The notes: generated by a model not told the origin, from the letters alone. A stretch of 64,000 bases of DNA from an uncultured Deferribacteraceae bacterium (GCA_947313825.1 CAMZNJ010000055.1:480-64479); one strand, 5' to 3'; shown: positions 17,450-59,594, numbered from the stretch's first letter. Numbers and translations are program-made.

Positions 17450-17537
17450 TAATATTTTCCAACGCCGAAACATGGCAAATGGTGTTTTCAGAAAATAATT
17501 ACTATTCGTGGGTTTTGTTATATTTTTGCAAAAATAC

Positions 17538-24840: not shown

Positions 24841-24847
24841 CCGACAG

Positions 24848-42777: not shown

Positions 42778-44583
42778 CTAAGATATTAGCCCAGCTAAGC
42801 CCGGAACATCGGATATGGACACACAGCTAATACCTTTTATGTAGCGTGTGGCAAAGTCGTCAATGCTAGGGGCACTGAAATAATTTATGGCAACCATGGC
42901 ACCGTCGTAAGTAACATTATCCAACTTACCATGGTATGTTTTGTCGATTATCCCAAGGTATTGAGCAAATGCGGAAATATCACCAACAGACGCTCCTGTG
43001 TAGATGCGAATGCCAACAAGGGGGGATATCTCAGAAGCAACAAGGGGGAGGAGTGCACGCACAGCTTTGCCGTATTTGTCCACACCACGAATATACTCAC
43101 CATCAACAGATACAAGGGAATGCCTATCACGGTATATGTTGAACAGGTTACCCTTCGACTTCGCCGCAACCTTAAGGGCTAACTCCAAGGGGATGCGTTC
43201 CGAAAGCTCTGAACGGGGGTAAAACTGGTAAGTTTCGTCCAAAAAACCGCGACCCAAAAGAATATGGATACAATGCAACATCGCCACAAAAGTTATGCCG
43301 TTAGGTGGCATATCGGGATCCAAAATGCCAACGTCAACAATACCCTTATGCATGCTGATTATGGGGTTCGTTGCCGAAAACTCAGGCAACTCCAAGGACG
43401 GTGGCAACTCCAATGGTGCCGTGGAAAACTCGTAATAACCCGACTTAGCATAGTAATAAACCCTATCAGTATGCTGTGTGCTCAAAACCAAAGTACCATT
43501 GCTATGCAAATTTGAAAGAAGCAAAAAATGCTCCAAATTCGAAGGGGTAGTGTCAGTGGCAAGGGGCTGTAAATACTCGATGCTAACACCGTCAACACTC
43601 TCTGATGCGTAAAAAGCAAGACCGAATAAATTCTTCTTAACATCAACCGTAACCATCTCAGAATACTCACGAATAATACAAATCACACGCTCAGAATGCT
43701 GAATATTAAGCATGCGATTAATCACTTGAGGCAACAAACCCTCGGCGATAACTCGATGCAAAAACTGGGACGCTGTGGTAATCTCGGAGCCTGAAGCGGA
43801 ACCATCTTGGGAGGGAACAATATACCCAACCAAACTGGACACAGGGATTGTTGTATCGTTAATTATGCTGTCCAAGGGGGCACTGTACTGCAAAATACGA
43901 ACGGTATCACCATTGTCGTACACAACTATGCCGTCCGTAAGCCCCGAAGCAGTAGGCTCGGGATGGGTAATGTCGTCGATGGTCGCTTCCGCAAGGTGGG
44001 GCACATCTCTGTAGTAGGATGAGTGGGTTGCACCACTGGACGAGCCTGCCTGAGAGGCGATGGTGTGAGCTGATGACGGTGCTGACGCTGACGCTGACGA
44101 TACCGCTGGCGACGCCGTTTCTGCTGGTGTCTGGGCACCACCACCCCCAACGTAGTCGAACATCCCCTGTGGGCTAGTCGCTGACGGTGCTGACATTGCT
44201 GACGCTGACGAGCCTACCCCTGCACCCCCATCGTACTGCCCCCCATCGTTGTGGCGAGCGTCGTACTCTTGCTGTGTATTGTTGGTGCTACTGTCGGGGA
44301 GCGATATTTCCACGTCGTGTCCAACGCTGTATCGACAAGCTAATCGGTAGCCGTTATTGAGTAGTAGTTGTCCCACATGCAGTCTATCTGCCTTGCTTAT
44401 GCGTTCCCCATCCGCGGAGAACTGCACCTGACATTTACCGCATCGCCCCTTACCGTTGCACATAGTTGTGTGCATAATATTTTTATCACGCAGTGCTTGG
44501 TATAGGGTTGCCCCTTTCGGTACAGAGATAACTTTGTTTGTCCCACGAATACTAACGCGGTACTCACGATTGAAGATACGCAT
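42778..44583 (-). CDS. 2Fe-2S ferredoxin-domain / ASKHA (DUF4445) protein of the corrinoid-activation (RACo)-like family, with a low-complexity S/A/G linker
   Basis: The N-terminus VSIRGTNKVISVPKGATLYQAL...CNGKGRCGKCQV is a plant-type ferredoxin fold. The large C-terminal domain is typical of ASKHA ATPase-like proteins. Confidence 0.6.
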   Translation of the reverse strand: MRIFNREYRVSIRGTNKVISVPKGATLYQALRDKNIMHTTMCNGKGRCGKCQVQFSADGERISKADRLHVGQLLLNNGYRLACRYSVGHDVEISLPDSSTNNTQQEYDARHNDGGQYDGGAGVGSSASAMSAPSATSPQGMFDYVGGGGAQTPAETASPAVSSASASAPSSAHTIASQAGSSSGATHSSYYRDVPHLAEATIDDITHPEPTASGLTDGIVVYDNGDTVRILQYSAPLDSIINDTTIPVSSLVGYIVPSQDGSASGSEITTASQFLHRVIAEGLLPQVINRMLNIQHSERVICIIREYSEMVTVDVKKNLFGLAFYASESVDGVSIEYLQPLATDTTPSNLEHFLLLSNLHSNGTLVLSTQHTDRVYYYAKSGYYEFSTAPLELPPSLELPEFSATNPIISMHKGIVDVGILDPDMPPNGITFVAMLHCIHILLGRGFLDETYQFYPRSELSERIPLELALKVAAKSKGNLFNIYRDRHSLVSVDGEYIRGVDKYGKAVRALLPLVASEISPLVGIRIYTGASVGDISAFAQYLGIIDKTYHGKLDNVTYDGAMVAINYFSAPSIDDFATRYIKGISCVSISDVPGLAGLIS

Positions 44584-44635
44584 ACACACACTCCCACCCT
44601 ACTCCCAAGCGGGAGTTTCGCCATGATGCCCGTAT

Positions 44636-44918: not shown

Positions 44919-45908
44919 CTATTCGAACACCTGAACAATTGAAAACCGCATCTGCATCTCTAGCCACTGCTCGTAAGTTGCTTGCACCTTTGCGGCGTAT
45001 AGTTCTTGTAAGATTCTCCCGCTTAGGTCGTAAAATGACGCTATCGTGCGGGGGTTGGAGGTAATGTAGAATCGGTATGCGTTACCATCCACAACACGCA
45101 CGGGGGAGATGGTTTTTGCTTTCAGGGTTTGTACGATGGGTTGCAAGTCGTCGCGAATGTCGCCAATCTTGTCGTAAGGGATGACCACTGCTTGGGCAAC
45201 ACGGCTTAGTGCTGCCAACTCTTGATCCCGCAATCCGTCTCGAAACAGCTCTGTGATTTGGGTGTCGTATTTGGGATCGTAAATAATATTGATAACATAC
45301 GGCTTGGCCTCAGTGTATTCGCCAAACCCGTACTCAAGGATGTCCCGACTGGAGATAACAATCGTGGGGGCGATAACATTTTGGGCGACGCTTTGTCGTT
45401 TGAGTTCGAGGTTGATGCGTGCCAAGTAGCTTTCGTAACTCAAACCGCTGTCTTTGAGGTCTTGCAGAAGCTGTTCCCGCGTTGCCCCTTGTGAGTCGAG
45501 TATTGCTTGAATGTACCTATCTTGATCGTCTTGTGTGGGCTCAGGCAGGCGAACTTGCTTGAGCACCTTGGTGAGTATTTCGCTTTCGATAATCGACTTG
45601 CGTAATGACTCGTTGTTGGTCAAGCTCTTGTCAATTGAGCCACTTCCAGCACTGAAGGTGCCCCCTGTGTTTTGCGAGGAGAGATCGAACCCCATGTCGG
45701 CAATATCCTTGTACGTTATGGGGTTTTGGTTAATCACCAATGCCAAGGCTGTGCTACTATGGCGTGGGGTATCGGCTCCCCTAGCGGTAAGGGGGAGGAT
45801 TACGCCAACAGTTGCCACCAAGCTAAGGAGTGCTATTGCTGTTGTGAGCAGTATTTTGCTCGTTATTGTCGGGGTTGTGTGCCCCTGTTTTTGGGAATAT
45901 ATGGTCAT
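44919..45908 (-). CDS. Periplasmic chaperone, SurA N-terminal-domain-like protein without PPIase domain
   Basis: An N-terminal TM/signal sequence is followed by SurA_N-like helices (...SYESYLARINLELKRQSVAQNVIAPTIV...). Confidence 0.5.
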   Translation of the reverse strand: MTIYSQKQGHTTPTITSKILLTTAIALLSLVATVGVILPLTARGADTPRHSSTALALVINQNPITYKDIADMGFDLSSQNTGGTFSAGSGSIDKSLTNNESLRKSIIESEILTKVLKQVRLPEPTQDDQDRYIQAILDSQGATREQLLQDLKDSGLSYESYLARINLELKRQSVAQNVIAPTIVISSRDILEYGFGEYTEAKPYVINIIYDPKYDTQITELFRDGLRDQELAALSRVAQAVVIPYDKIGDIRDDLQPIVQTLKAKTISPVRVVDGNAYRFYITSNPRTIASFYDLSGRILQELYAAKVQATYEQWLEMQMRFSIVQVFE

Positions 45909-45931: not shown

Positions 45932-45995
45932 CCATAACACATACAGCACAGTAGCACAGTAGCACAGTAGCACAGTAGCTGTGTGTGGTGTTATG
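45932..45995. repeat. Imperfect palindrome (CCATAACACATACAGC / GCTGTGTGTGGTGTTATGG) enclosing a CACAGTAG x4 tandem repeat, overlapping the stop of the upstream chaperone gene
   Basis: Read directly from the sequence. Confidence 0.75.
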
Positions 45996-47022
45996 GGTTT
46001 ATGATTGTGTTGATTACCGTTCCGTCTGGTATGTAGTATTGTATATCAGTAGTAGTGTACAATATTTCAATATAGTCGTCTACATAAGAGTTCACCTTTT
46101 GGTGGTAGAGGGATTTGCCAATACTGTCGCGTAGCAGGTCTAAGGGGATAAAGTTTTTGCTACTGTTGTACACCCCTAGCACTTGGTAGATGTGGTGCAC
46201 GCCCCCTTGGTCGTATAGGTGCGTTTCACCTTGAGGCATTCCGTCTGCAGGGAGGATACCCTTGGGGGTACTCCCTTGCAACAAAAACCCTTCCTGAAGA
46301 AAAACGTTACTGTACCCTTCATCATACCTACGTGCCACCTCTTCGAAATCGTACTCTTTGAGCTCTTCAAGTATCTCTTGTTGCAGTGCGTTGCTATCGG
46401 TAACAATACCTAGGATATGGCGAATGGGGTAGTTGTCGAACTCGTTTTTCATCCTATCGTATTCTTGGGCAATTTCATCAGACGAGATGGTTATCGCCCT
46501 GTAGAAGTTGTCCACCATGTAACCGTGGATAATGCTGTCTTGGTAGGTTATCCCCAAGAAGCTATTGAACACCTGCGAGTTGCTGAGAATTCTGACGGTG
46601 TCCGCCTTGGAGGCATTCTCTTCCAGTGCGTTCCTCACTTCGCTTTCGGCTACGGGGGGTATGGTTGAGCCCCCCCGCTGAGCATCCTGATAGATAAGGT
46701 TATAACGCACAAAATCATGGAGATAAAACTGAAAAATCTCAGTGCTGTTTAGGAGTTTGGGTGAGATGTCGCCCATTTTGAGGGACATGTAATCAGAAAA
46801 ATCTGAAGAGTAGTACATCTTGCCGTTAATAGACACAAACTTGACATGACTAGCAGCATACCGCTGAGCCAACACGTACGTAAGACCAGCAACAAGAAGC
46901 ACCAGTATCGAAACAGAAACAATCAGAGCACGATACTTCTTTGCCGTAACAAAAATGCTATTCCTCATACCCACGTTGGATGTATCCTTGGCTTGTGTCG
47001 CTAACTTATGCATAGAAAGCAC
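45991..47022 (-). CDS. Peptidyl-prolyl cis-trans isomerase (parvulin/PpiC-type) with SurA-like N-domain, membrane-anchored
   Basis: An N-terminal TM helix is followed by a parvulin segment (...NYPIRHILGIV...GGVHHIYQVLGV). Confidence 0.6.
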   Translation of the reverse strand: MLSMHKLATQAKDTSNVGMRNSIFVTAKKYRALIVSVSILVLLVAGLTYVLAQRYAASHVKFVSINGKMYYSSDFSDYMSLKMGDISPKLLNSTEIFQFYLHDFVRYNLIYQDAQRGGSTIPPVAESEVRNALEENASKADTVRILSNSQVFNSFLGITYQDSIIHGYMVDNFYRAITISSDEIAQEYDRMKNEFDNYPIRHILGIVTDSNALQQEILEELKEYDFEEVARRYDEGYSNVFLQEGFLLQGSTPKGILPADGMPQGETHLYDQGGVHHIYQVLGVYNSSKNFIPLDLLRDSIGKSLYHQKVNSYVDDYIEILYTTTDIQYYIPDGTVINTIINP

Positions 47023-47182
47023 AGTTTACACGAAAAAGCACCAATAGCAAAGGGGATTTTTACTCCCACAATAAATTATGACCGGCGAAAGCTCGTTAGA
47101 TGTGTTGATTTTTAACGCAATCAATTATAACATAGCAAACACAAAAACAAAATTCACGGAGACCAAAAACAACCGCAACCGT

Positions 47183-47713
47183 ATGAATATGAATAACACT
47201 AACACAAACCTCAACCACAAACCTAACACCGAAAATTACACCCCCGAAGATATTTATTTCATGGAATATGTACTAAAATTAGCAAAAAATGCCTATGATA
47301 ATGGTGAAGTACCAATCGGTGCAATAGTAGTCGTGGAGGGCAAAATAGTGGGGGAAGGACAAAATCGGAAAGAAACACAGCAAGATACTGTCGCACACGG
47401 CGAAATACTAGCAATACAAAACGCTAGCAAAAACCTCGGAACATGGCGACTCAACAACTCAACTCTGTACACAAATATCGAACCGTGTATAATGTGCTGT
47501 GGTGCAATCATACACGCACGCATCAACCGTGTTGTCTTCTGCACCGACGAACCCAAATTCGGAGGCGTCATCAGCCAAACAAACCTATTCGACATACCAA
47601 CTCTCAACCACAAAGTAAACTACCAATACGGACTCATGCAGAACGAATCACAAACACTAATACGAAAATTTTTTCGCGAAATACGCACAAAACTAAACAA
47701 CAAAAATAAATAA
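47183..47713 (+). CDS. tadA: tRNA-specific adenosine deaminase
   Basis: HAEILAIQ and PCIMCCGAI are CDA-fold zinc motifs. The start is taken at 47183; the N-terminal 35 aa of the listed ORF are an N/T-rich extension. Confidence 0.85.
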   Translation: MNMNNTNTNLNHKPNTENYTPEDIYFMEYVLKLAKNAYDNGEVPIGAIVVVEGKIVGEGQNRKETQQDTVAHGEILAIQNASKNLGTWRLNNSTLYTNIEPCIMCCGAIIHARINRVVFCTDEPKFGGVISQTNLFDIPTLNHKVNYQYGLMQNESQTLIRKFFREIRTKLNNKNK

Positions 47714-47760: not shown

Positions 47761-49260
47761 ATGGACATGGACATAGACATGGACAACAACCCAAACCGCA
47801 ACAAACAACAAAACAGCATGGAACAAAACCTCATCATCATGGTGTACTCTGTGTACTACCTTTCACGAAAAGTATTCCGATCACACCGCAAAGAACGACA
47901 CATATCCGAATACATCTGCGTTGCCCTGAAAAAGAAATACAACTCCATACCAAACAAAGACGACTTCATCATCGACCTCGTCAACAACATACAATCCCAA
48001 GGGATGACCGAAAAAGAACTACTCTCCAAACTACTCGAACTCACATTCGAAATGGGGGAACCACAACGCGAAAAAATACTCAGTATCGCCGAAAACCTCG
48101 TAACCTTTGCACACGGACAAGAACTCAACCGCATTCACGACGCCTTCAACATCGAACGAAAAATCTCATACCAAATAAAATCCTCAGTAATGAGTGGCAT
48201 CACTGAAAACGCCGGTATCCGTGGCATCATCATGGCAGCACTAACCGTAACTTTCACACTAATCGCCATCACCATGCCCGTTGTAGGGATACTACTCGAC
48301 GACGACGAGGCTATCCCAGCAGTAAGCCTCGTCCACGCCACAGGGAACACCACGGCGAACACCACAGACGAACAGGCACGCAACGCCATATACCCAGTGT
48401 TACAGCGTATCGAGTTCGATAAGTTCATCATCAACGGCGTTCTGTCCCAAGACAATATTGCCTCAGCAACAACCAACAGCTCTGTTTACAATATTCAAGG
48501 CTATGCGGACATATCCATCGACCTGCACGAGTTTAGCTACCTCAACTCAGTCGTATCCCACAAATCAGACCTCAACCTAGTCCCATTTCGCATCAAAGTT
48601 ACCATCGATAACACAACCCTTACCAGAGTGGGTTTCGCCCAAAGCTACATCGAGCCCAATACGGGGAAAACAGTAAGCTCCCTGCCCCTGCAAACCTTTA
48701 GCACACCCGATGGTTGGCTTCGGCTACAACCCAAAAGGTTGCGTACACAGACCACAGAAGAGACGCAAAACAGTACCGCTGACACACCCGACACACCCGA
48801 CACACCCGACACACCCGACACCAAAAACATTAGCAATATACAGTACACCTCTACTAGCTCCTTGTTCTATCAGATTAGCGACCATTCAAAAATTATTCAC
48901 TACCTCGCACCAGTACCAAACACAGCCAACACAGCCAACACAGCCAACACAGCCACGAACACCACTGCAAACGTAAACACATCCAACACTACCGAACAAA
49001 GCACCATCCTTGCCACCCCCTCTACCTCTGCCATAAACTACCTTGTCGTTAATACAGTTTTGTCGTCCGATACAGTTGCCGCATCCGAGTACGGTGCAAG
49101 CCTCGCAATCGACGTCAACAGGCTCAACGAACAGATAGCCATTAGCCTACTGTCGGACAAGCAGATTTACAGCACCATGGTTGATACTTTAAGGGTATTT
49201 TTGTACACTGAGTATGCTCGCAACGGGCTCTATGTCGGAACCATAAGCCTAAACCCTTAA
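47761..49260 (+). CDS. Hypothetical bitopic membrane protein (~150-aa cytoplasmic N-domain, one TM, ~330-aa extracytoplasmic domain with TPDT and NTA repeats)
   Basis: An AAGGAG ribosome-binding site lies 11 nt before the ATG at 47761. The N-terminus is MDMDIDMD. The TM segment is GIIMAALTVTFTLIAITMPVVGILL. No recognisable domain was found. Confidence 0.6.
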   Translation: MDMDIDMDNNPNRNKQQNSMEQNLIIMVYSVYYLSRKVFRSHRKERHISEYICVALKKKYNSIPNKDDFIIDLVNNIQSQGMTEKELLSKLLELTFEMGEPQREKILSIAENLVTFAHGQELNRIHDAFNIERKISYQIKSSVMSGITENAGIRGIIMAALTVTFTLIAITMPVVGILLDDDEAIPAVSLVHATGNTTANTTDEQARNAIYPVLQRIEFDKFIINGVLSQDNIASATTNSSVYNIQGYADISIDLHEFSYLNSVVSHKSDLNLVPFRIKVTIDNTTLTRVGFAQSYIEPNTGKTVSSLPLQTFSTPDGWLRLQPKRLRTQTTEETQNSTADTPDTPDTPDTPDTKNISNIQYTSTSSLFYQISDHSKIIHYLAPVPNTANTANTANTATNTTANVNTSNTTEQSTILATPSTSAINYLVVNTVLSSDTVAASEYGASLAIDVNRLNEQIAISLLSDKQIYSTMVDTLRVFLYTEYARNGLYVGTISLNP

Positions 49261-49289
49261 CAACCCCTTGCAACACGGAGACACTTACT

Positions 49290-50873
49290 ATGACGCAACT
49301 AATCTTACGAAAACTATCCTCACCAGTGCTACTTATTTCAGCGTTTGCACTCATGGTTGCCCTATCCTTGCCCCTACAGCAACGTTTGCGTAGTATTCCG
49401 TCCATGTCCCCCATCAATGGCAGTATTCAAAACATGTACAATCAATCTGAGCTCACCCTCGCCCTTACCCAAGTTGATCTGTACCTCGACATCCCCCGCG
49501 TATCACGCATCACACCCTACCTCGTTACCGCCAAAATCGCCACCAAAGGCATTAGCACTCACTACATCACAAATAAAACCGATTCTGAAGCCCCCAAAGA
49601 GCTCGTCATGGTAATACCGCCACCCATCATCAGCGTACTCCCCACCGATAATAGCAATGCCTTCACCATCCGCGAAAGCAACGCCAGTGTTGCCTACCGC
49701 AAAGGGTTATCCGACTTCGGACTCATCTATGCAAAACGCAAAGCCTTGCAAGAAGGGTTACTGGAGCAAGCAAACAGCTACTTGCAAAAACTTGCCACTG
49801 AATCAGAAAAATACAGCAACACCGTAATCCACATCGACACAGACTCATGGGAGACACCCCTGCCTCCTGCAATAAATATCACGGGAACACGCTTCAGCCT
49901 CTACCCCGATCGCAACAGCAACCTCTCCTACAACACCAACTACACCTCCGACAAACTCTCATACTACTTTGCAAATATCACAGACAACACCACCAGCTCC
50001 ACCCTCACCATGTCCCTCTACGACATAGACATAGACATAGACATGGACATGGACACGGACATAGACAAGGCGAACACAGAAACAAACAACACCCCATGGA
50101 CACACAATACTCTACGCACATACGACGGCAAAAACATGATAAGCATATCCTTTACCCCCACAGGGTTTAACGCAATGATAAAGGACGATACCAGAACATA
50201 CCTCCTTGCCGCACAATCCCCCTCCCCCAGCGATTTTTCCAGCTTCCTACCCGTCGCCCTCAACACCATATCTTCTTTGCGAATTAACACCAACCAAACC
50301 AATATCCAAGAAAGTTGTACAGATATTTTTCAAAATAATATTGACGCGTGGTTGAACTCAGACGCGATAAGCATTAACGATTACGTCAAAGGGCTGTTGC
50401 TTTCCAAGTACTTTAATCCCGATAAAATATTTCAAACCGTTGACATTCAGAACACAACAGTGCTATATGATAGTAAAACCTTGGACGAATACCAAGGGAA
50501 CATACGACAACTCACCATACGATTACAAAATATCGGTCAATCCAACGCCCTAACACAGCAGACAGCAAATTTTGCACTTTACAGCAAGAATGCCTTGGCA
50601 AACAACGAAGATATCTATATACTGTTTTTAAAAACAAGGGCTTACGTTTACGTTTACGACAACTCTGGTAATAATATTCTAAATAAAACTATGAACTTTT
50701 ACCAGCTCCCGAACAACTATAAGGTAGTTATTGATAACCAGTCCTCGTGTTCTAGCGGTCGACTCTACAAACACGAAGACGACATGTTCTGCTTTAGCAA
50801 AACATATGTGGCAGACTTTATCGACAAGCTCATCAATGACTCCTTTGTTGCTCTATTTAAATGTGGGTTATAA
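49290..50873 (+). CDS. Hypothetical secreted/envelope protein (signal peptide or TM anchor, 527 aa, internal DIDIDIDMDMDTDID repeat)
   Basis: A GGAGA ribosome-binding site is present. The N-terminal hydrophobic segment is VLLISAFALMVALSLP. The gene lies 38 nt upstream of the ECF sigma gene on the same strand. Confidence 0.6.
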   Translation: MTQLILRKLSSPVLLISAFALMVALSLPLQQRLRSIPSMSPINGSIQNMYNQSELTLALTQVDLYLDIPRVSRITPYLVTAKIATKGISTHYITNKTDSEAPKELVMVIPPPIISVLPTDNSNAFTIRESNASVAYRKGLSDFGLIYAKRKALQEGLLEQANSYLQKLATESEKYSNTVIHIDTDSWETPLPPAINITGTRFSLYPDRNSNLSYNTNYTSDKLSYYFANITDNTTSSTLTMSLYDIDIDIDMDMDTDIDKANTETNNTPWTHNTLRTYDGKNMISISFTPTGFNAMIKDDTRTYLLAAQSPSPSDFSSFLPVALNTISSLRINTNQTNIQESCTDIFQNNIDAWLNSDAISINDYVKGLLLSKYFNPDKIFQTVDIQNTTVLYDSKTLDEYQGNIRQLTIRLQNIGQSNALTQQTANFALYSKNALANNEDIYILFLKTRAYVYVYDNSGNNILNKTMNFYQLPNNYKVVIDNQSSCSSGRLYKHEDDMFCFSKTYVADFIDKLINDSFVALFKCGL

Positions 50874-50910
50874 AAAACCACACCTACTCAAAAAGGGGTT
50901 CACAGGGGTT

Positions 50911-51504
50911 ATGATTCCAGATAATACTGGTGATAAAGCTATCATCGATAAGGTTTTGAGTGGATCAACAAACGATTTTGAGGCACTTGTTTTAAAGTAT
51001 CAAAATCCTTTGCTAGCATTAGTAATGCGAATCACTCGCAATGAAGATGCGTCCAAGGACATTGTGCAGAATAGTTTCGTGGCAGCCTACATCAACCTGA
51101 GGTCCCTCAAAGACCCAAACAGCTTTTACCCATGGTTGAGACGAGTTGCCATCAATAACTCATACTCGTACTTCAGAACCGTCAAACACCAATACTCTTT
51201 CGCCGACGGTGAACATCACGACAACGTCATAAACAGCATTGTCGCAGAGAAAAACCCCGAAGATATTCAAGCAAACACCGACGTGTCCGAAATACTAGAA
51301 GCTATTTACAACACTCTCCCCGAACGGTTGCAAACAGTTTACTACTTACGCGAGGTGGAGGGGTTGTCGTACGAAGAGATAGCCGAAGCACTGTATATCC
51401 CCGTTGGTACGGTGCGTAGCAGGCTGTTCAACGCTAGACGTATTTTTAAAGATAAACTAATAAAAAAAGGAGTTATTTCAGATGCAGCCACCTCGATTAA
51501 GTAG
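50911..51504 (+). CDS. RNA polymerase ECF-type sigma-70 factor
   Basis: Region 2 is DIVQNSFVAAYINL. Region 4 is LPERLQTVYYLREVEGLSYEEIAEALYIPVGTVRSRL. The ATG at 50911 (AGGGG ribosome-binding site) is preferred over the 50731 start, which would overlap the previous gene. Confidence 0.85.
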   Translation: MIPDNTGDKAIIDKVLSGSTNDFEALVLKYQNPLLALVMRITRNEDASKDIVQNSFVAAYINLRSLKDPNSFYPWLRRVAINNSYSYFRTVKHQYSFADGEHHDNVINSIVAEKNPEDIQANTDVSEILEAIYNTLPERLQTVYYLREVEGLSYEEIAEALYIPVGTVRSRLFNARRIFKDKLIKKGVISDAATSIK

Positions 51505-52033
51505 CTGTGAAGAGTACAAACACAACATCTCTACACTCATGGACGACGCATTGACTCAACAGGATGAGGAATCACTGATGCAACACACACAGAGCTGTTC
51601 CCACTGCTTTTCAGAGCTCCAAGCACAAAAACAAATATGTAGTCTCGTGCGTTCTAATATCCATTTCCTTGCCGCAAACCCCATGTCCCAAGAAGAAGGC
51701 ACCTCCATGGCAAGCTCCATTATGGCTCGAATAGCACAGCAAGATAAGGTTATGGACGACTATCGCAAACACCCAGCTAATCACCTTGGCAGACTTAACC
51801 CTAGCCATAACGCCACACAAGGCAACAACAACAATAGCGACAACAGTACCTCTCACCCAAAATATGAATTTCTTTTTAACCCTCGCCCACTAATCATTAC
51901 CTCTGCGGCGAGCCTTTTATTACTTGTGGGGAGCAGTACCAGCATGCTCTACTCGTTCTCCAGCATACAGCACGAGTCTTTAAACGACGGGTCATTGGTT
52001 ATCATGGTGTCGGATATTGATATTGAAAAGTAG
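51482..52033 (+). CDS. Anti-sigma factor, zf-HC2 type, single-pass membrane protein
   Basis: The HTQSCSHCFSEL motif is of the HxxxCxxC type. The TM segment is LIITSAASLLLLVGSS. The gene overlaps the end of the sigma gene. Confidence 0.7.
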   Translation: MQPPRLSSCEEYKHNISTLMDDALTQQDEESLMQHTQSCSHCFSELQAQKQICSLVRSNIHFLAANPMSQEEGTSMASSIMARIAQQDKVMDDYRKHPANHLGRLNPSHNATQGNNNNSDNSTSHPKYEFLFNPRPLIITSAASLLLLVGSSTSMLYSFSSIQHESLNDGSLVIMVSDIDIEK

Positions 52034-52083
52034 GCTAGTCAACAGCTACTAGTCAACAGCTACTAGTCAACAACCGTTGACCC
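52034..52083. repeat. Tandem repeat (TAGTCAACAGCTAC x3) ending in the palindrome GTCAAC-AACC-GTTGAC, immediately after the anti-sigma stop
   Basis: Read directly from the sequence. Confidence 0.8.
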
Positions 52084-52154
52084 TCGCCCATATTGCCCCA
52101 TACAGCTTCACATTGCCACACCCTTTGTGCCCACGATAATTATTCCCCCATGTC

Positions 52155-52182
52155 TTGCATTTTCCCTTCAGTTTTGTATAAT
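52155..52182 (+). promoter_or_regulatory. Near-consensus sigma70 promoter (-35 TTGCAT, 16-bp spacer, -10 TATAAT) upstream of htrA
   Basis: Read directly: TTGCAT at 52155-52160 and TATAAT at 52177-52182. Confidence 0.45.
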
Positions 52183-52221
52183 AAACCGCACCCTATTTTT
52201 CACTCAGGAGGATATATCACA

Positions 52222-53784
52222 ATGCACACAAACACAAAACCCCCATTGCGTATTCAATACCTTGCGATCCCCATACTTTTAGCCCTAGCCATTATTGTTT
52301 TAGTGGCACTCCAAGGATGCAGTGCCCCGAAACAAACCTCAACAACCACCGACAACCAAAACTCAAATACAGATACACCCACCCTTAACATAGATAACGG
52401 CAACAACGCCCAAGCTAATGTTAACGCTAACACCCCGTACCCTAATTTCGTGGAGATTATCAACAGAACCCGCAACGGCACCGTAAACATCGTCGTAACG
52501 CAAATCGTGGAGCAACAAACCATGTCGAGCCTCTTCGACGGCGTTCCTAACGATTTTTTCGGCGAATTCTTCGGTGAATTCTTCCAACAACCACCCTTCC
52601 CCCAACACCCACAAACACCGCAACCACGCCAATCTCAGTCCCAAGGTTCAGGGTTTGTCATCAACCAAGATGGTTACATCGTTACCAACAACCATGTTGT
52701 GGACAACCAAACTAGCATCGTCGTAACCCTATCCAGCGGCAACGCATACAACGCCACACTCATCGGAACAGACCCCCTCACCGACCTTGCCCTCATCAAA
52801 ATTGAAGCCAACGAAACCCTTACGCCACTACCCCTAGGAGACTCTGACGCCACTAATATCGGCGAATGGGTACTGGCAATCGGCTCACCTTACGGACTCG
52901 ACGCCACTGTTACCGCTGGAATCATCTCCGCAAAGGACAGAAGCATACAAAGCGGACCATTCGACAGCTTCCTGCAAACAGATGCCTCCATCAACCCCGG
53001 TAACTCTGGCGGTCCACTAATCAACATGGCAGGCGAGGTCATCGGCATCAACACCGCAATATTTCGAAGTGCACACGGACTCGGCTTCTCCATACCCATC
53101 AACACGTTCACAACACTAATGCCACAACTACTCAATAACTCTGTTGTACACGGCTGGATAGGTGTTACACTGCAGGAGCTCACCCCCGAACTATCAGCCT
53201 CGTTCAACGTGCCTGAAGGGTACAACAACGCAATTGTTATCGCTGATGTAGTGCCCGGCGATCCCGCTGACAAAAGTGGACTACTACCCGGCGACGTTAT
53301 CCTCGATGTCAACAAAATGCCCGTGAACGGCTTCAGAGGCTTTGCACAAACCGTGGGAAGCACCAAACCGGGCAAAACTGTTGCACTCGGAATACTACGA
53401 AACAACAAACGGATAACAATCAAAGTAACTGTGGGCGAACGACCCGAAACCGCTGGACGAAAAAACAATAACAACAACCCAAACAACAACCAAAACCAAA
53501 ACTCCACAACCGTGGACGGTATATCGGTACAAAATATCGATAACAAAACTGCCGTGGAATACGACGTTAAATACGGCGTTGGCGTATGGGGTGTTGAAGC
53601 CGAATCAAACGCAAGCAGTGTCGGACTAAAAGCAGGGGTAATCATCATGGATATTAATGGCACGAAGATAACCTCTGTTGCAGACTTCAAAGCTGTTTAC
53701 TCCAAAATTAAATCTGGCGATACGGTCAACATGCGTGTTGCCACACCTAGGGGCAAAACCTACATCGCCTACAACAAAGACTAG
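52222..53784 (+). CDS. htrA: Periplasmic serine endoprotease DegP/HtrA family with two PDZ domains
   Basis: An AGGAGG ribosome-binding site is present. The trypsin-like triad region includes GNSGGPLIN, and two C-terminal PDZ-like segments follow. Confidence 0.85.
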   Translation: MHTNTKPPLRIQYLAIPILLALAIIVLVALQGCSAPKQTSTTTDNQNSNTDTPTLNIDNGNNAQANVNANTPYPNFVEIINRTRNGTVNIVVTQIVEQQTMSSLFDGVPNDFFGEFFGEFFQQPPFPQHPQTPQPRQSQSQGSGFVINQDGYIVTNNHVVDNQTSIVVTLSSGNAYNATLIGTDPLTDLALIKIEANETLTPLPLGDSDATNIGEWVLAIGSPYGLDATVTAGIISAKDRSIQSGPFDSFLQTDASINPGNSGGPLINMAGEVIGINTAIFRSAHGLGFSIPINTFTTLMPQLLNNSVVHGWIGVTLQELTPELSASFNVPEGYNNAIVIADVVPGDPADKSGLLPGDVILDVNKMPVNGFRGFAQTVGSTKPGKTVALGILRNNKRITIKVTVGERPETAGRKNNNNNPNNNQNQNSTTVDGISVQNIDNKTAVEYDVKYGVGVWGVEAESNASSVGLKAGVIIMDINGTKITSVADFKAVYSKIKSGDTVNMRVATPRGKTYIAYNKD

Positions 53785-53886
53785 CAACAACTAGTCAACA
53801 CTACTGTGGCAGTACCTTTTACCGGGCACTGCCACACACCTAAACACACAGCCAAGTACACAGCCCGACTTACGGGGAGAACACAT

Positions 53887-55578
53887 ATGACAGCACGCCA
53901 ACGCCAACAACAACCCAAACACAAACTCCCCATGCTCTCCACAGTTGCACTTGCTGTTCTCACACTAACCATGCTCCCCCTAATTGTAGGTGCGTGCACC
54001 AAAACCAACAACACAACAACCAAAAACTACAGTACTGAAACCCTAAATATTCGCATCCCACAAGATATGGACACCCTCGATCCCCACAAAGCCTCGTCCG
54101 CAGGCACCAAAGAGGTGATGTTCAACGTTTTTCGCGGACTACTTACGCCAACACCCGACGGCACCCTCGTGGGGGGTATTGCCAGCAACTATAGCGTCAA
54201 CAACAACCGCACACAGTACACATTCCACATTCGACCTAATGTTCTGTTTCACAACGGCAACCCCGTGGAGTCCAAAGATGTTGTCTACAGTTACCGCAGG
54301 CTAATGGGCAGTATCGACCCTAGCATACGTTATAAATCCCTTGATATTGTAACCGGCGTGGAGGCGATCAACACCACCACCGTACGCTTTACCCTATCTG
54401 AGTCCAACAACTCCATCTTAACCGAGTTTACCCGTGCCATTATCCCCGAAAATAGTGGCGATACCATCGGAACCAACCCCATCGGAACAGGACCCTATCG
54501 CTTGCAGAACTACTCCCCAACACAGTTCATTGCCATGGAAGCATTCCCACAGTTTTACCTCGGCGAAGCTCCCATCAAAAACGTTACTTTCCGAATCATC
54601 CCCCACATAACAACCACCATACTTGCCGCCAACAGCCAAAGTAGCAACAGCCTCGACATTATCCCCGACCTACCGTACAACAACTTCGCAATGCTAAACA
54701 TGTCAAACTTCAACAACATTGCCGAAAACCTCAACCTTGTGCAAATACTCGCATACAACCACACGTACGCACCCCTTGCCAACAAAGACGTTCGCATCGC
54801 CATCAGCCAAGCAATCAACAAAACCCGCATCATCGACCTACTCACAAACTCTGAAGGCACCCCCCTAGAATCACACATGACGCCACTCATGGGGGCATAC
54901 TACAACAACTCCATCGCCACACCATACCCATACAACGAAACTGAAGCACTACTCAGCCTCAAACGCTCACCCTACAAAAACGGCTTCAACCTCACAATAA
55001 CTGTCCCCTCCAACTACCAACTACACGTGGACACAGCCGTACTAATCGCCGAAAACCTCAACACAATCGGCATCAACACTACTATCAAAACCGTGGAATG
55101 GGGGGTATGGCTCAACGATGTTTACAAATCGGCAAACTATGAGGCAACCGTTGTGGGCTTTGCAGGGAAACTGGACCCATACCAAACCCTACGCCGATAC
55201 TCATCAACCTACAGCAACAACTTCTTCCACTACAACAACGCTACTTTTGACCAATTAATCAACACCGCACTGCGTGGGAATACCTCCCAAAGCGAAAAAG
55301 CATACCGCGATGCCCAAGGTGTTTTGGCTGAGGATTTAGCCGCATACTTTATCATGGATCCAGCGGTGCACACAGCAGTGCGAAAGGGTATCGCTGGCTG
55401 GACAACCTACCCCATTAGCGTAATCGACGTGTACGCACTCTACAACACCAATGCCATACTCCAAGGATCAAACAGAACCATCACCAACACCAACAGTAAA
55501 ACCTCCAACACCCCTGATGATGCCAACAGCAGTATCGACAACGGGAACCCGCGGGAACCCTCGGGAACCCGCACCTAA
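53887..55578 (+). CDS. ABC transporter substrate-binding lipoprotein, family 5 (oligopeptide/dipeptide/nickel)
   Basis: A signal peptide with LIVGAC lipobox is followed by an SBP_bac_5-like sequence. The C-terminal tail contains a GGGAACCC x3 nucleotide repeat. Confidence 0.8.
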   Translation: MTARQRQQQPKHKLPMLSTVALAVLTLTMLPLIVGACTKTNNTTTKNYSTETLNIRIPQDMDTLDPHKASSAGTKEVMFNVFRGLLTPTPDGTLVGGIASNYSVNNNRTQYTFHIRPNVLFHNGNPVESKDVVYSYRRLMGSIDPSIRYKSLDIVTGVEAINTTTVRFTLSESNNSILTEFTRAIIPENSGDTIGTNPIGTGPYRLQNYSPTQFIAMEAFPQFYLGEAPIKNVTFRIIPHITTTILAANSQSSNSLDIIPDLPYNNFAMLNMSNFNNIAENLNLVQILAYNHTYAPLANKDVRIAISQAINKTRIIDLLTNSEGTPLESHMTPLMGAYYNNSIATPYPYNETEALLSLKRSPYKNGFNLTITVPSNYQLHVDTAVLIAENLNTIGINTTIKTVEWGVWLNDVYKSANYEATVVGFAGKLDPYQTLRRYSSTYSNNFFHYNNATFDQLINTALRGNTSQSEKAYRDAQGVLAEDLAAYFIMDPAVHTAVRKGIAGWTTYPISVIDVYALYNTNAILQGSNRTITNTNSKTSNTPDDANSSIDNGNPREPSGTRT

Positions 55579-55706
55579 TGGCTAGAGTGGGCACAGTGGC
55601 TAGCCCCATCGGGGGCACACGCCCTGCACACACCGTCGCACACACATTCCACACATTGGCACAAAATAATAACACTTCCCGTAACTTCTGATGTATAATA
55701 CTTACC

Positions 55707-56708
55707 ATGTCTACCCCTACCATACGAATCATAACTAAACTTGTGAAAAACACTCTGGATGCCTTACTGCTACTCCTTGGCGTCAGTGTTGTTGTGTTTT
55801 CGCTCTTGTATCTAACCCCCGGTAATGCCTTGCTCATTCAGGTTGGTGTTGGATCAGATCGTGCCCTCACCGAGTCGTATCAGGCACTGTTTTCCCTCAA
55901 TACTTCACCTGTCATACAGTATTTTGAGTGGTTGCAAGGTCTGTTGCGAGGTAATTTCGGCGTTTCGTACGTTTACCATGCCCCTGTTTTCACCATTGTT
56001 CTCCATGCCTTAGGTGTTACAGCCGCAATTGCTAGTGTTGCAATGATTATTGCTGTTGGCGTATCCTTGCCCCTCGGTCTTTACCTTGGGGGGAGCGGTT
56101 CACAGGTGTTACGTGCTCCCCTTAGTGGTATTATTACCCTTGGCGTGGCTGTTCCGCAATTTTTATGGGGCATACTCCTTCTTTACTTATTCGGCAACGT
56201 GTTTTCCGCTTTTGTACCAGGTGTGTACGCCCCCCTGAGCAGCATTCTCCCCATGGCAATGGCAGGAAGCAGCGGGAACAACGCCATCCCCGCACTAGCA
56301 TACCTCTTAGCACCCGCATTGGCACTCGCCCTGCCCGCCATAGCAATACTCAGCCGGTACACCTACAACTCTGTTCGCGAACTAAACGCACAACCCTTCA
56401 TGCTCGCACTACAGTGTCGTGGCATCGGCGGTTGGCAACTCTTACGTCGCCATACCCTACGCAACCTCCTTGTGGGGTACACCTCGTTCAGTGGCATCCT
56501 CCTCATCGATCTCCTTGCAGGGTCAGTGCTCGTTGAGTACATCTTCAACATTCCGGGGCTAGGCAACACACTCGTTACAGGTATTCATCAGCGAGACACC
56601 CTTCTTGTGCAAGGTGCTGTGCTGTATGTTGCGTTTCTGGTGGTGGTCATCAACAAAATCACCGACGGACTCTACTACATACTCAACCCCAAGCTAAGGA
56701 GAGCCTAA
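55707..56708 (+). CDS. ABC transporter permease (DppB/OppB-like)
   Basis: A six-TM type-I permease following the family 5 binding-protein gene. Confidence 0.85.
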   Translation: MSTPTIRIITKLVKNTLDALLLLLGVSVVVFSLLYLTPGNALLIQVGVGSDRALTESYQALFSLNTSPVIQYFEWLQGLLRGNFGVSYVYHAPVFTIVLHALGVTAAIASVAMIIAVGVSLPLGLYLGGSGSQVLRAPLSGIITLGVAVPQFLWGILLLYLFGNVFSAFVPGVYAPLSSILPMAMAGSSGNNAIPALAYLLAPALALALPAIAILSRYTYNSVRELNAQPFMLALQCRGIGGWQLLRRHTLRNLLVGYTSFSGILLIDLLAGSVLVEYIFNIPGLGNTLVTGIHQRDTLLVQGAVLYVAFLVVVINKITDGLYYILNPKLRRA

Positions 56709-57563
56709 ATGCACCACAGCCAAGAATCAGCACACTTACCACCACTCACCCTCGCGTTAGGCATCATCCTTGCAGGCATACCCCTAGCCATGGGACTAAT
56801 CTCACTGCTCTACACACCATTCGAACCCAACCTCATCATCGCAAACGCCGTTTCAGCACCCATAACGCCTACGCACCCCCTTGGAGGCGACTACCTCGGA
56901 CGAGATACACTCAGCAGACTCATGACTGGAGCACGCATCACAATCACGATGGCAACAATGGCAATAACTACTGCAACCATTACCGCTTTTGCCCTCAGTG
57001 CAACATCCGTGGCAGCACTCAACACGCCAACACCATCACGCACAGGACAACTTACACACAAAACAATCACCTTCCTCACAAACACACTAATGGGAATACC
57101 ATCCCTACTACTAGCACTAGCTGTGGTATCTATCCTAGGGGGAGGAATCGCAAACACAACCATCGCCATAACCATCATGCTCGTACCGGGGCTCACAAGA
57201 GTAATGCAGGCAGCTCTAATACAGGTGTACGCTGAAGACTACATCAAAGTAGCCAAAACTTGGGGAGTCAGCAACATCAACATCGCACTCAAACACGCCC
57301 TGCCAAACGCGGCACCAAGCATCATCGTCGCAATACCAATCTACATGAGTGCAGCCATACTCGTCGAAGCAGGACTCAGCTACCTCGGACTCGGCGTAGC
57401 ACCACCAACACCAAGCTGGGGAATAATGCTCAACCAATCAATACCACACATCAACGCACAACCCATGGCAGCCATCGCACCCGCAACAATGATAATCTTC
57501 ACAATACTAGGGCTAAACCTGATTAGCGACGGACTAAACCAAAAACTCAGGGGTAAAAAATGA
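56709..57563 (+). CDS. ABC transporter permease (DppC/OppC-like)
   Basis: A type-I permease with an AAGGAG ribosome-binding site. Confidence 0.85.
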   Translation: MHHSQESAHLPPLTLALGIILAGIPLAMGLISLLYTPFEPNLIIANAVSAPITPTHPLGGDYLGRDTLSRLMTGARITITMATMAITTATITAFALSATSVAALNTPTPSRTGQLTHKTITFLTNTLMGIPSLLLALAVVSILGGGIANTTIAITIMLVPGLTRVMQAALIQVYAEDYIKVAKTWGVSNINIALKHALPNAAPSIIVAIPIYMSAAILVEAGLSYLGLGVAPPTPSWGIMLNQSIPHINAQPMAAIAPATMIIFTILGLNLISDGLNQKLRGKK

Positions 57564-59275
57564 CCCAAAAACCGAAACAATCAAAACAACCACTGCTTAC
57601 CCTACAAAACCTCAACACAACCCTCTACGCAAACAACTCAACAACAAAACTACTCCAAAACGTTGACCTACAACTCAACGAAAACGAAATAATGGCCCTC
57701 GTCGGACTCTCGGGAAGCGGAAAAACAATGCTGTGGAAATCCATGGTCGGTGTACTGCAACACAAAACAACAAAACAACCAAACAACAGCTTCATCACCG
57801 AAGCAACAATGGACGGCTCCATCACAAACAACACTCAAACACAATCACTAAACAAACTACTCGGACAAAAAAACGGCATCGGTATCATATTCCAAGAACC
57901 ACACGCATCACTCGACCCACTCATGACAATAGGGGAACAAATAAGCGAAGTCCTCAAGCTACACAGTAGCGAGCCACACAGTAGCAAGCCACACAGTAGC
58001 AAGCCACACCGTCGAAAAAAATTGACCAAACAGGAGCTAACAAACAAAGTACACGACGCCCTAACACAAGTCGAACTCAACCCAAACTACAACAACCGAT
58101 ACCCACACCAACTCTCTGGCGGTGAAGCACAACGCGTCGCAATCGCACTGGCAATCGCAAACAAACCCAAACTCATCATCGCTGACGAACCAACTTCAAA
58201 CCTAGACGAAACAAACCAAACACTCATCATCAACATGCTACAAAAACTCTGCCAACAAAATAGCACATCCCTGATTCTCATTACCCACAACATCGCCATG
58301 GCAGCATCTGTTGCACAAAAAATCGCCATTCTACAAAATGGCACCATCATCGAAACAATAAACAACATACCAAACAACAACATGGACAAACTCATCGCCA
58401 ATGCCAAACAAAAACACACCAAAAACCTACTCATCGCAAACCAATTTCAACCAAAACACAAAACAACCCACAACGCTGACAACAAAAAAGCACGATTCTT
58501 CACCGTGCTCGAAAACAATACCCAAACAAATACAAACAATCCACTAACGCCAAAAGGGGAAAATATTACGCAAACAATGTGGGTCAAAGGTGCCACAAAT
58601 CAACAAATTAACCTCAACAAATGCACCAACGCCATCGAAATCAAAAACCTTACCAAAATATACAACAACCGTAAAGGGAACGCCACAGCACTGAAAAACA
58701 TCAACCTAAACATACCCGCAGGAAAAATCACAACACTAGTCGGACAATCAGGGAGAGGCAAATCAACCCTCGCAAACATACTCGCAGGGCTGGAAACACC
58801 CTCTGAAGGAACAATCACCGTATGGGGAGAAAAAACAAACCCAACACAACGCTACAAACATATCAGAATCGTAACACAATACCCAAACACAATGCTCAAC
58901 CCAAAAATGACCATCAAAAATATACTGCGTAACAGTGCCACAAACAACTACAACCCCGCAATACACCCATACCACGTGAAATACCTGATGAACGAATTCA
59001 TACTGCCAACAAACACACTCAACAAATACCCACACCAACTCTCTGGCGGACAAAAACAACGTATCGCAATAATGACAGCACTCATGGGGGGAGCAACAAT
59101 CCTCATCGCAGACGAAATCACTTCCGCCCTCGACGCCAACGCAGCCGCAACAATACTAAATATGCTACTGGACATCAACGAACGAATGGGCACAACAATA
59201 CTGCTCACAACACACAACACAGCAATAATTAAAGGGTTTGCAGACCATACCGCAACGCTGGATAGCCACGGCTAA
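57560..59275 (+). CDS. ABC transporter ATP-binding protein, fused double ATPase (DppD-DppF-like) with low-complexity inserts
   Basis: Two Walker A motifs (GLSGSGKT, GQSGRGKST) and two signature motifs (LSGGEAQR, LSGGQKQR). An in-frame HSSEPHSSKPHSSKPH repeat is present. Confidence 0.85.
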   Translation: MTQKPKQSKQPLLTLQNLNTTLYANNSTTKLLQNVDLQLNENEIMALVGLSGSGKTMLWKSMVGVLQHKTTKQPNNSFITEATMDGSITNNTQTQSLNKLLGQKNGIGIIFQEPHASLDPLMTIGEQISEVLKLHSSEPHSSKPHSSKPHRRKKLTKQELTNKVHDALTQVELNPNYNNRYPHQLSGGEAQRVAIALAIANKPKLIIADEPTSNLDETNQTLIINMLQKLCQQNSTSLILITHNIAMAASVAQKIAILQNGTIIETINNIPNNNMDKLIANAKQKHTKNLLIANQFQPKHKTTHNADNKKARFFTVLENNTQTNTNNPLTPKGENITQTMWVKGATNQQINLNKCTNAIEIKNLTKIYNNRKGNATALKNINLNIPAGKITTLVGQSGRGKSTLANILAGLETPSEGTITVWGEKTNPTQRYKHIRIVTQYPNTMLNPKMTIKNILRNSATNNYNPAIHPYHVKYLMNEFILPTNTLNKYPHQLSGGQKQRIAIMTALMGGATILIADEITSALDANAAATILNMLLDINERMGTTILLTTHNTAIIKGFADHTATLDSHG

Positions 59276-59297
59276 GGGCAAGATGACCACAGGACGG

Positions 59298-59573
59298 ACG
59301 TGCGTGTGTGTGCTGACGCTGGACGTGTGCGTTGCTGACGCTGGACGTGTGCGTTGCTGACGCTGGATGCGTGTGCGTTGCTGACGCTGGACGTGTGTGT
59401 GTTGCTGACGCTGGATGCGTGTGCGTGCTAACGCTGGATGCGTGTGCGTGCTGACGCTGGACGTGTGTGCGTGCTGACGCTGGACGTGTGTGCGTGCTGA
59501 CGCTGGACGCGTGTGTGTTGCTGACGGACGGCACCGCGGACGGCAACCACGGACGGCACCGCGGACGGCACCA
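59298..59573. repeat. 22-nt tandem repeat (TGCTGACGCTGGACGTGTGCGT variants, ~10 copies) followed by GACGGCACCGCG x4, filling the ABC-ATPase/dnaB convergent junction
   Basis: Read directly. ORF 59229..59594 within it is taken as an artefact. Confidence 0.85.
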
Positions 59574-59594
59574 CAAAACCAAGAAGAGCGTCAA

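Follow-up and report, generated by a model that had tools for sequence, protein, structure and literature searches.

Typical proteins of the family DUF4230 are single-domain proteins of about 200 amino acids. The literature that we found on this family was confined to incidental mentions, and the sole experimental ones concerned the deletion of SMU_1803c in S. mutans, which gave no significant biofilm phenotype. A second point of comparison is the rpoE-rseA-rseB-rseC operon of E. coli, with its RpoE-like extracytoplasmic-function (ECF) sigma factor, translationally linked membrane anti-sigma factor and envelope proteins. A third is the translational coupling by occlusion of a ribosome-binding site (RBS) that occurs in compact bacterial and phage operons. 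Here we analysed a 64-kb stretch of DNA from an uncultured Deferribacteraceae bacterium (GCA_947313825.1, CAMZNJ010000055.1:480-64479), referred to below as the window, in whose positions all coordinates are counted. An earlier note on this DNA had singled out two large, unrecognisable proteins, termed here P1 and P2, encoded directly ahead of an ECF sigma/anti-sigma gene pair, and had suggested an envelope-stress or surface-protein module. We propose, with a probability of roughly 0.55, that P1-P2 is a conserved two-gene membrane module which in one clade of symbionts forms a single operon with tadA, a tRNA adenosine deaminase gene, and with the ECF sigma and anti-sigma genes. We see in the pair a rare variant, made up of two genes, of an uncharacterised membrane family; in one clade this variant was recruited into an ECF operon. 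As such it is a modest finding, not a categorically new system. Judged from sequence, the closest known kind is DUF4230, with P2 a divergent, extended member and P1 at best a split relative.

P2 (527 aa; 49290..50873, + strand) starts with a hydrophobic segment at residues 8-31, an anchor or a signal. Next comes a divergent DUF4230-like domain at residues ~55-175 (nt ~49452-49814), and the C-terminal region, which is conserved and contains Cys, ends in FVALFKCGL. The earlier note had described P2 as a secreted protein; the sequence shows no more than the N-terminal hydrophobic segment, which would fit an anchored as well as a cleaved protein. Comparison with the DUF4230 model PF14014 gave no match at E≤10 for full-length P2 or its N-terminal 187 aa, and the homologues P0005 and P0006 likewise gave none (related proteins are denoted P00xx and related contigs L0xx). 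The assignment to the family came from more distant relatives. A profile of the P2 orthologues was used in a full HMMER scan of 1.84 billion representative proteins, and just five representatives were recovered at E≤1e-3. The matches to P0008 (E 1.2e-7, query positions 14-421), P0009 (5.2e-4) and P0010 (6.9e-4) identified these as full-length distant relatives, sharing with P2 the N-terminal hydrophobic segment, the long C-terminal region and an F-[VI]-x-L-[FM] ending. Against PF14014, which has a gathering score of 27 bits, the same three proteins scored 35.4, 32.3 and 36.9 bits, respectively, over residues ~65-190, a region aligned to residues ~55-175 of P2. Since these distant homologues pass the cut-off at the aligned position, we regard P2 as a strongly diverged DUF4230 protein, a member by transitive homology with a family-specific C-terminal extension. 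At the aligned position P2 has in common with DUF4230 proteins an N-terminal anchor, a beta-rich segment, an 'LPxPxI' strand and a long helix, and it differs from them by the additional conserved ~340 aa at its C-terminus. The ratio of non-synonymous to synonymous substitution rates (dN/dS) of P2 relative to the sister species was 0.145, a value that points to purifying selection.

P1 (499 aa, ATG 47761; 47761..49260, + strand) is a bitopic membrane protein. Its hydropathy plot contains a single hydrophobic segment (residues 151-181), and this transmembrane (TM) segment separates an all-helical cytoplasmic domain (~20-150) from a periplasmic part, in which a beta-rich segment (~205-300) is followed by a linker of low complexity and, at the C-terminus, by a helical pair. 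The linker (48781..48955, + strand) was delimited with Tandem Repeats Finder (TRF) and alignments, contains (DTP)4.6 at 48781-48821 and (NTA)4.1 at 48919-48955, and is variable. Both the single TM helix and the TPDT and NTA repeats that had been described for a 499-aa bitopic protein were thus borne out by hydropathy and TRF. P1 is likewise under purifying selection, with a dN/dS of 0.24 relative to the sister species, and its identity to P0002 is 66% in the cytoplasmic domain and 31% in the periplasmic part; by this comparison the cytoplasmic helical domain is the most constrained part of the protein.

Each distant P2 homologue is immediately preceded by a gene for a protein of 436-453 aa with P1-like architecture, the distance between the two genes ranging from an overlap to 15 nt. 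These proteins share with P1 a cytoplasmic domain (helical, ~160 aa), a single TM segment, a beta-rich segment, a variable middle and a C-terminal helical pair, and the beta-rich segments have in common the motifs FDKFI-xG, GYAD-x-x-x-D/F and LPF-x-I-x-V. In the distant proteins, ~60 aa that are rich in Gly and Ala and resemble a glycine zipper make up the variable middle, which occupies the position of the (DTP)n/(NTA)n low-complexity linker of the window's P1. Profile-profile comparison of the close P1 group with the distant upstream proteins gave a probability of 88.5% and an E of 2.8e-6 over P1 residues 213-290. When the Gly-rich insert was removed, two of the three distant P1-like proteins matched DUF4230 co-linearly, at profile positions 21-144 (E 2e-4) and 33-144 (E 7e-4), with scores of 21.9 and 20.1 bits compared with 18.5 bits for the native sequence, all of them below the 27-bit cut-off. 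The distant proteins scoring below this cut-off, we treat a DUF4230-like periplasmic domain in P1 as a lead and not as a result; what sets P1 apart from DUF4230 would be the insertion of a linker and an extra ~150-aa cytoplasmic domain. A further word-indexed search with the mixed P1 alignment retrieved only the two known orthologues, its candidate list probably having been swamped by low-complexity words.

The related genomes place the window among the gut symbionts of the shrimp genus Rimicaris: metagenome-assembled genomes (MAGs) of the Rimicaris exoculata gut symbiont Ca. Rimicarispirillum belong to the Deferribacteres (PMC9636832). The window is 86% identical in nucleotide sequence to L001 ('uncultured Deferribacteraceae bacterium M_Rainbow_MAG_00001'), which belongs to one of these Ca. 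Rimicarispirillum MAGs, and 97.9% identical to L002 (MAG GCA_947313785.1), a pattern from which we infer that it fits the two-MAG species Ca. R. nautilei (PMC9636832). Among 5.8 billion clustered proteins, two homologues of P1 and four of P2 were found. Scans of a genome collection and of metagenomes returned one locus each, the patterns derived from such small alignments being too specific to reveal a wider distribution.

P1-like and P2-like genes were adjacent in all seven lineages in which the junction is visible (window/L002, L001, L009, L003, L005/L010, L006/L008 and L007). Where the gap between them was measured, it was at most 29 nt, down to an overlap of the genes; the gene calls of L001, L003 and L009 put it at 49-72 nt. 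Within the shrimp-symbiont clade, the order tadA-P1-P2-sigma-anti-sigma is kept wherever it can be seen, that is in the window, L002, L001 and L009. In L009, a P2 of 61% identity is followed by the sigma gene (87%) and the anti-sigma gene (47%), while L003 contains the 3' end of tadA, a P1 of 40% identity and the start of P2, the contig reaching no farther.

In the window itself, tadA, P1, P2, the ECF sigma gene, the anti-sigma gene, htrA and a peptide ATP-binding cassette (ABC) importer all run in one direction on the + strand, and the listing of open reading frames (ORFs) together with the family scans supported this order as it had been given before. Gene starts were set by reading the junctions and by comparing the gene calls of L001 and L002. 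The spacings are 47 nt for tadA-P1, 29 nt for P1-P2 and 37 nt for P2-sigma; the sigma and anti-sigma genes overlap by 23 nt, after which 188 nt separate the latter from htrA and ~150 nt separate htrA from the binding-protein gene of the importer. The gaps of 30-100 nt that had been claimed for the cluster therefore apply to the spacers of 47 and 37 nt, with that of 29 nt just under, and do not apply to the overlap or to the two wide spacers. From tadA to the anti-sigma gene, no terminator-like site was found on the + strand except one within tadA. The first gene of the block, tadA (47078..47713, + strand), scored 148 bits against NF008113 (cut-off 150) and above the cut-offs of MafB19-deam and dCMP_cyt_deam_1, and its product carries an Asn-rich N-terminal extension of ~55 aa.

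The junction between P2 and the sigma gene holds a predicted mRNA helix (50831..50916, + strand), in which the last codons of P2 (50831-50854) pair with the G-rich RBS region and AUG of the sigma gene at 50895-50916, an inner hairpin lying between the two arms. The outer helix was obtained in the minimum-energy folds of the window, L001 and L009 computed separately (z -3.05, -3.80 and -1.08), was also present in the consensus fold and persisted in a 230-nt context. Among 30 gene starts tested in the window, with values of up to 0.77, that of the sigma gene had the lowest probability of positions -16 to +3 being unpaired, 0.167; the corresponding values were 0.153 in L001 and 0.307 in L009. A run of 29 nt (50839-50867) is identical in three lineages, among which overall only 41% of amino-acid-identical codons are identical. 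As in RBS-occlusion coupling, the sigma RBS and AUG would be paired with the end of the preceding gene, and upstream translation would open both; the difference is that the structure here is a prediction from three sequences, without significant covariation. The model suggests that the helix ties translation of the sigma gene to that of P2.

Based on these observations, we propose the following arrangement. Both P1 and P2 would have an anchor in the cytoplasmic membrane and be largely extracytoplasmic, P1 being the bitopic partner with a periplasmic domain that resembles one of DUF4230 type interrupted by a variable linker. As their genes are inherited together and probably translated together, the two proteins most likely make up one membrane complex. 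The genes from tadA through the anti-sigma gene would be co-transcribed, and, going by the predicted fold and its conservation, the sigma factor and overlapping anti-sigma factor would be produced for the most part when P2 is translated through to its end. The P1-P2 envelope complex would then be produced in a fixed proportion to the sigma and anti-sigma factors.

A number of results weigh against this proposal. At the level of the proteins, neither P1 nor P2 had a direct match in Pfam or NCBIfam, so that the label 'unrecognisable' was right for direct searches, although for P2 it gives way to the transitive link with DUF4230. The window's P1 did not match PF14014, leaving its own DUF4230 link below threshold; the cytoplasmic domain of P1 had no detectable homology to its counterpart in the distant P1-like proteins (E 0.48); and hhalign comparison of the P1 and P2 families, full-length and trimmed, found no relationship and hence no support for paralogy. 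The AlphaFold2 models, built from shallow alignments, had predicted local distance difference test (pLDDT) values of 31 and 36 for the two proteins and were unusable as evidence of fold. The profile searches and structure predictions that the earlier note had recommended for both proteins thus yielded the family link of P2 and, on the structural side, only these low-confidence models; sequence-profile searches of the PDB with both family alignments gave nothing significant. At the level of the locus, the distant lineages L005/L010 and L007 have no sigma, anti-sigma or HtrA gene near the pair. These are the two lineages with readable downstream flanks, L006 ending too soon downstream and L008 providing upstream context. 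Because distant lineages keep the pair without these neighbours, the ECF link is specific to a clade and not a property of the module, and inherited gene order alone could explain the synteny in so close a clade, with sigma factors 87-92% identical. As for the helix, the three sequences contain one compensatory pair, which 151 of 500 shuffles equalled, so that covariation is not significant, and in L009 the z score is only -1.08 and the helix is missing from the centroid fold.

These results would also fit a coincidental adjacency, in which an independent membrane module sits beside a housekeeping ECF pair, the shared gene order reflects kinship and the helix is a by-product of compact packing. 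The 86% nucleotide identity between the window and L001 fits such an explanation, as does the presence of tadA, an unrelated housekeeping gene, within the same tight block. It accounts less well for the P2-sigma spacing, which at 37 nt (35-45 nt in the gene calls of L001 and L009) is kept even where P2 has fallen to 61% identity, for the identical 29-nt run at the 3' end of P2, which goes beyond amino-acid conservation, or for a sigma start that is the most occluded in the window. We consider coincidence possible but on the whole unlikely, and retain the one-operon proposal for the symbiont clade. On the sequences compared, the robust unit is the P1-P2 pair, and the ECF association is specific to one clade. 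The envelope-stress or surface-protein module of the earlier note therefore survives as a real, constrained and membrane-anchored conserved pair, with its ECF linkage limited to the symbiont clade; the comparison across genomes that had been suggested as a check found the pair everywhere that it could be seen and, where the flanks were readable, the ECF neighbours in the symbionts only.

The surroundings of the pair in the distant lineages bear on another explanation, namely that it is a membrane-associated stress or phage-defence-like module of TerB/DjlA-N type, mobile between genomic islands and captured beside an ECF pair in the shrimp symbionts. Genes near the distant pairs include small, accessory-looking ones for WCX, DUF1232, DUF2442, Zn-ribbon and HSDR_N-like proteins, of which WCX, DUF2442, Zn-ribbon and HSDR_N-like count in favour of this account, together with pyrG, and P1 and P2 are extremely patchy in distribution and rare. 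The distant P1-like proteins, which like TerB/DjlA proteins have a helical cytoplasmic domain beside a TM segment, also showed weak similarity to TerB (PF05099; 16.2 and 12.7 bits, cut-off 24.4; E 0.013 and 0.16) and to the TerB region of DjlA (14.9 and 14.5 bits, cut-off 162; E 0.015 and 0.019). All these matches are far under the family cut-offs, however, and the N-terminal domain of the window's P1 gave no TerB or DjlA signal and is not detectably homologous to the N-terminal domains of the distant proteins. PADLOC returned chance-level matches only (JukA, E 0.015; PDC-S48, E 0.011-0.028), a scan of viral contigs found no relatives, and the distant contexts were seen on short contigs. We regard a mobile defence-like origin as very improbable, the least likely of the explanations weighed here. 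The distant contigs (L005/L010, L006/L008 and L007) are of low GC content, 33-40%.

The ECF sigma factor (197 aa, ATG 50911; 50911..51504, + strand) has Sigma70_r2 (38.4 bits) and Sigma70_r4_2 (56.6 bits) above cut-off and scored 77.7 bits against TIGR02937 (cut-off 42.9). Its score against the RpoE equivalog model TIGR02939 was 128.4 bits and did not reach the cut-off of 236. By these family scores it is an ECF (group 4) sigma factor, RpoE-like and not an RpoE equivalog, and it is 92% identical in L001. The anti-sigma factor (183 aa; 51482..52033, + strand) scored 21.8 bits against zf-HC2 (cut-off 22.2) and matched the RsrA model with an E of 6.7e-8, and the motif H-TQS-C-SH-C can be read in it. 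With an HxxxCxxC motif and a gene that adjoins an ECF sigma gene, it qualifies by sequence as a zinc-binding anti-sigma factor (ZAS, zf-HC2). The domain scores, this motif and the 23-nt overlap bear out the ECF sigma/overlapping zf-HC2 anti-sigma pair as previously described. The anti-sigma factor has a TM segment at residues 137-156 with only ~27 residues beyond the membrane, and this TM segment and tail are its best-conserved part besides the zinc finger.

The arrangement shares with rpoE-rseA-rseB-rseC an RpoE-like ECF sigma factor, a translationally linked membrane anti-sigma factor, envelope proteins in the operon and an HtrA-family protease nearby. It differs in that the accessory genes P1 and P2 lie upstream and not downstream, that the anti-sigma factor is of the zinc-finger type with a short periplasmic tail and is not RseA, that P2 is not RseB/MucB, and that the sigma factor stays under the RpoE equivalog cut-off (128 vs 236 bits). 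By analogy, then, the operon resembles rpoE-rseABC in general logic only. RseB was the top match of the P2 model in a Foldseek search of the PDB, at E 0.04, probability 0.14, TM-score 0.07-0.12 and a root-mean-square deviation of ~22 Å. This candidate was rejected as noise, the model having a pLDDT of 36 and MucB_RseB being absent from the Pfam and NCBIfam scans.

As the anti-sigma factor is almost without a periplasmic domain, the P1-P2 pair is a plausible, if speculative, accessory or sensor partner for it, and HtrA might take part in the same pathway, which is again speculative. The fullest form of this idea, a new periplasmic sensing module of DUF4230 type, analogous to RseB, in which synthesis of the sigma factor is gated by translation of P2 through the helix, seems to us improbable. 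If true, it would provide the first functional context for the DUF4230 family. What the locus offers under the one-operon proposal is an enlarged, two-protein DUF4230 variant placed beside an ECF pair in the dominant symbiont of the Rimicaris gut, which is uncultured. Should the pair provide input to the ECF system or depend on it, it would give a testable handle on DUF4230 function and on the way in which a symbiont of reduced metabolism monitors its envelope within a host. Its value is limited by the rarity of the family (five representative clusters among 1.84 billion proteins at E 1e-3) and by the uncultured state of the organism.

We also scanned the cluster, both in the window and in L001, for promoters of the ECF type (GAAC-N15-19-TCnnA/CGT/GTC), as the earlier note had proposed, and found no conserved ECF-type motif. 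The lone orthologous match, at 48016 (10238 in L001), was rejected because its spacing is ~3 nt too short for a sigma-E-type promoter and because it falls within the conserved coding sequence of P1. Sigma-70-like sites in the 3' region of P2 (50595-50623 and 50647-50675) are not strictly conserved in L009. Elsewhere in P2, a 22-nt run at 50711-50732 (GAACAACTATAAGGTAGTTATT) is identical in three lineages whose synonymous sites otherwise diverge, and is not explained by the sigma-occluding helix.

Repeats are a feature of the whole window, in which TRF reported 63 tandem-repeat rows in 64 kb of coding and non-coding DNA. P1 opens with an (ATGGAC)4 microsatellite (47761..47785, + strand; TRF) that encodes MDMDIDMD, precedes the first conserved residue, M20, and is lineage-specific, being absent in both orthologues, P0001 and P0002. 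P2 contains (GACATR)7.7 (50022..50067, + strand; TRF) within a length-variable insert; this microsatellite encodes DIDIDIDMDMDTDID, has one unit fewer in the 99%-identical P0003 and is absent or different in P0004-P0006. The earlier note had taken the GACATRGAC-encoded MDMDID as a motif shared by the two proteins. Within the window (GACATR)n does occur solely in P1 and P2 (47764-47781 and 50022-50069), but its absence or variable length in the orthologues and the repeat-rich genome mark MDMDID as a lineage-specific microsatellite and not as a conserved protein motif.

Such tracts raise the possibility that P1 and P2 are variable surface or host-interface proteins, in which repeats give length or antigenic variation and the position beside an ECF pair reflects regulation of surface remodelling. 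Ca. Rimicarispirillum lives between the microvilli of the shrimp gut (PMC9636832), the (DTP)n, (NTA)n and (DI/DM)n tracts are extracytoplasmic and vary between strains and species, and P1 evolves much faster in its periplasmic than in its cytoplasmic part. The repeats are not specific to P1 and P2, however, as they also occur between genes and in proteins of the cytoplasm, TadA among them, which argues against this explanation. Their units are in-frame multiples of 3, which leaves no room for on/off phase switching. The anchors of both proteins are of inner-membrane type, no outer-membrane or secretion signature was found in them, and their dN/dS values are well below 1. Surface variation is accordingly very unlikely in our judgement, and a constrained inner-membrane pair remains the preferred description. 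In the rest of the window, repeat units range from 5 to 149 nt (for instance a 7-mer x41, a 17-mer x25.6 and a 23-mer x9.7) and lie in genes as well as spacers, as at 21591-21884, 24847-25264, 31681-31830 and 59302-59526; where they were compared, copy number or even repeat identity differed between near-identical genomes.

Downstream of the anti-sigma gene lies htrA/degP (520 aa, ATG 52222; 52222..53784, + strand), whose start was set from the GGAGG spacing and from the gene calls of orthologues. The product meets the definition of an HtrA/DegP (Do) serine protease, with 428.4 bits against TIGR02037 (cut-off 416.2), 130 bits against Trypsin_2, two PDZ stretches (PDZ_2) and a readable GNSGGPL. 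A promoter-like site, TTGCAT-16-TATAAT (52155..52182, + strand), was read from the sequence within a conserved htrA-proximal region of ~95 nt; the sister species L001 has retained this region with both hexamers (TTGCAA-16-TATAAT), the rest of the spacer being unalignable. The site was not listed by a consensus scan because its -35 hexamer matches TTGACA at only 3/6 positions, and promoter-like sites in the window as a whole are at chance level (11 found vs 10.3 expected). The near-consensus sigma70 promoter that had been claimed here thus keeps its TATAAT and its conserved setting and loses its consensus -35, and the conserved ~95 nt lend some support to a separate htrA promoter. With this upstream region and the 188-nt gap, htrA and the importer are best explained as separate units downstream of the operon. 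The 'palindromic mini-array' reported ahead of the promoter turned out to be a 14-nt tandem repeat (CTAGTCAACAGCTA x2.7; 52035..52076, + strand; TRF), which follows the anti-sigma stop codon and ends in a GTCAAC/GTTGAC hairpin. It is hypervariable, with a copy number that differs between the window and L002 and with unrelated repeats in its place in L001. Inserts of low complexity, rich in Asn and Gln, occur in HtrA close to the N-terminus and between its PDZ domains. A lipobox-like LQGC follows the signal segment of HtrA (52222-52330) and IVGAC is found in the peptide-binding protein (53932-54010), so both may be lipoproteins.

The importer (53806..59275, + strand; SBP_bac_5, BPD_transp_1 and ABC_tran) is of the family 5 peptide/nickel type and consists of four genes rather than the five claimed earlier, since both of its ATPase domains are in one protein. 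Its binding protein (ORF 53806-55578, probable start near 53932, + strand) scored 232 bits against SBP_bac_5; it is followed on the same strand by two permeases (55707-56708 and 56709-57563), each with BPD_transp_1, and by a fused double ATPase of 571 aa (57560-59275) containing two ABC_tran stretches. One SBP_bac_5 protein, two BPD_transp_1 permeases and two ABC ATPase domains are the composition of a family 5 (Opp/Dpp/Nik) system. The best equivalog scores of the binding protein were to GsiB, DppA and NikA, all of them far under the respective cut-offs. That products of HtrA feed the importer, as the earlier note had imagined, is a speculative idea suggested by the adjacency of their genes.

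Rfam and tRNA scans over the whole window returned nothing. Divergently from tadA, on the - strand, lie tandem ORFs at 44919-45908 and 45991-47022 (a pair of 329 and 343 aa). The first has faint similarity to the N-terminal part of SurA (E 0.008; SurA PRK10770, E 9e-4) and the second has no match; on this basis the two may be diverged periplasmic chaperones, which would be a further envelope-related feature of this region. Farther upstream, the syntenic contigs L001 and L002 contain an Amidase_3 gene. The 603-aa ORF at 42778-44589 (- strand) has as its sole recognisable part an N-terminal 2Fe-2S ferredoxin-type domain (Fer2, E 4.5e-6). The composition of the window is strongly asymmetric and follows the direction of transcription, as seen on comparing 48001-60000, with its + strand genes, with for example 16001-18000: sense strands are A- and C-rich, with a GC skew of about -0.18 to -0.33 and an AT skew of about +0.16 to +0.31. 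The encoded proteins have an unusually high content of Thr, Asn, Pro, Gln and His, and Asn/Thr low-complexity tracts occur even in TadA and HtrA.

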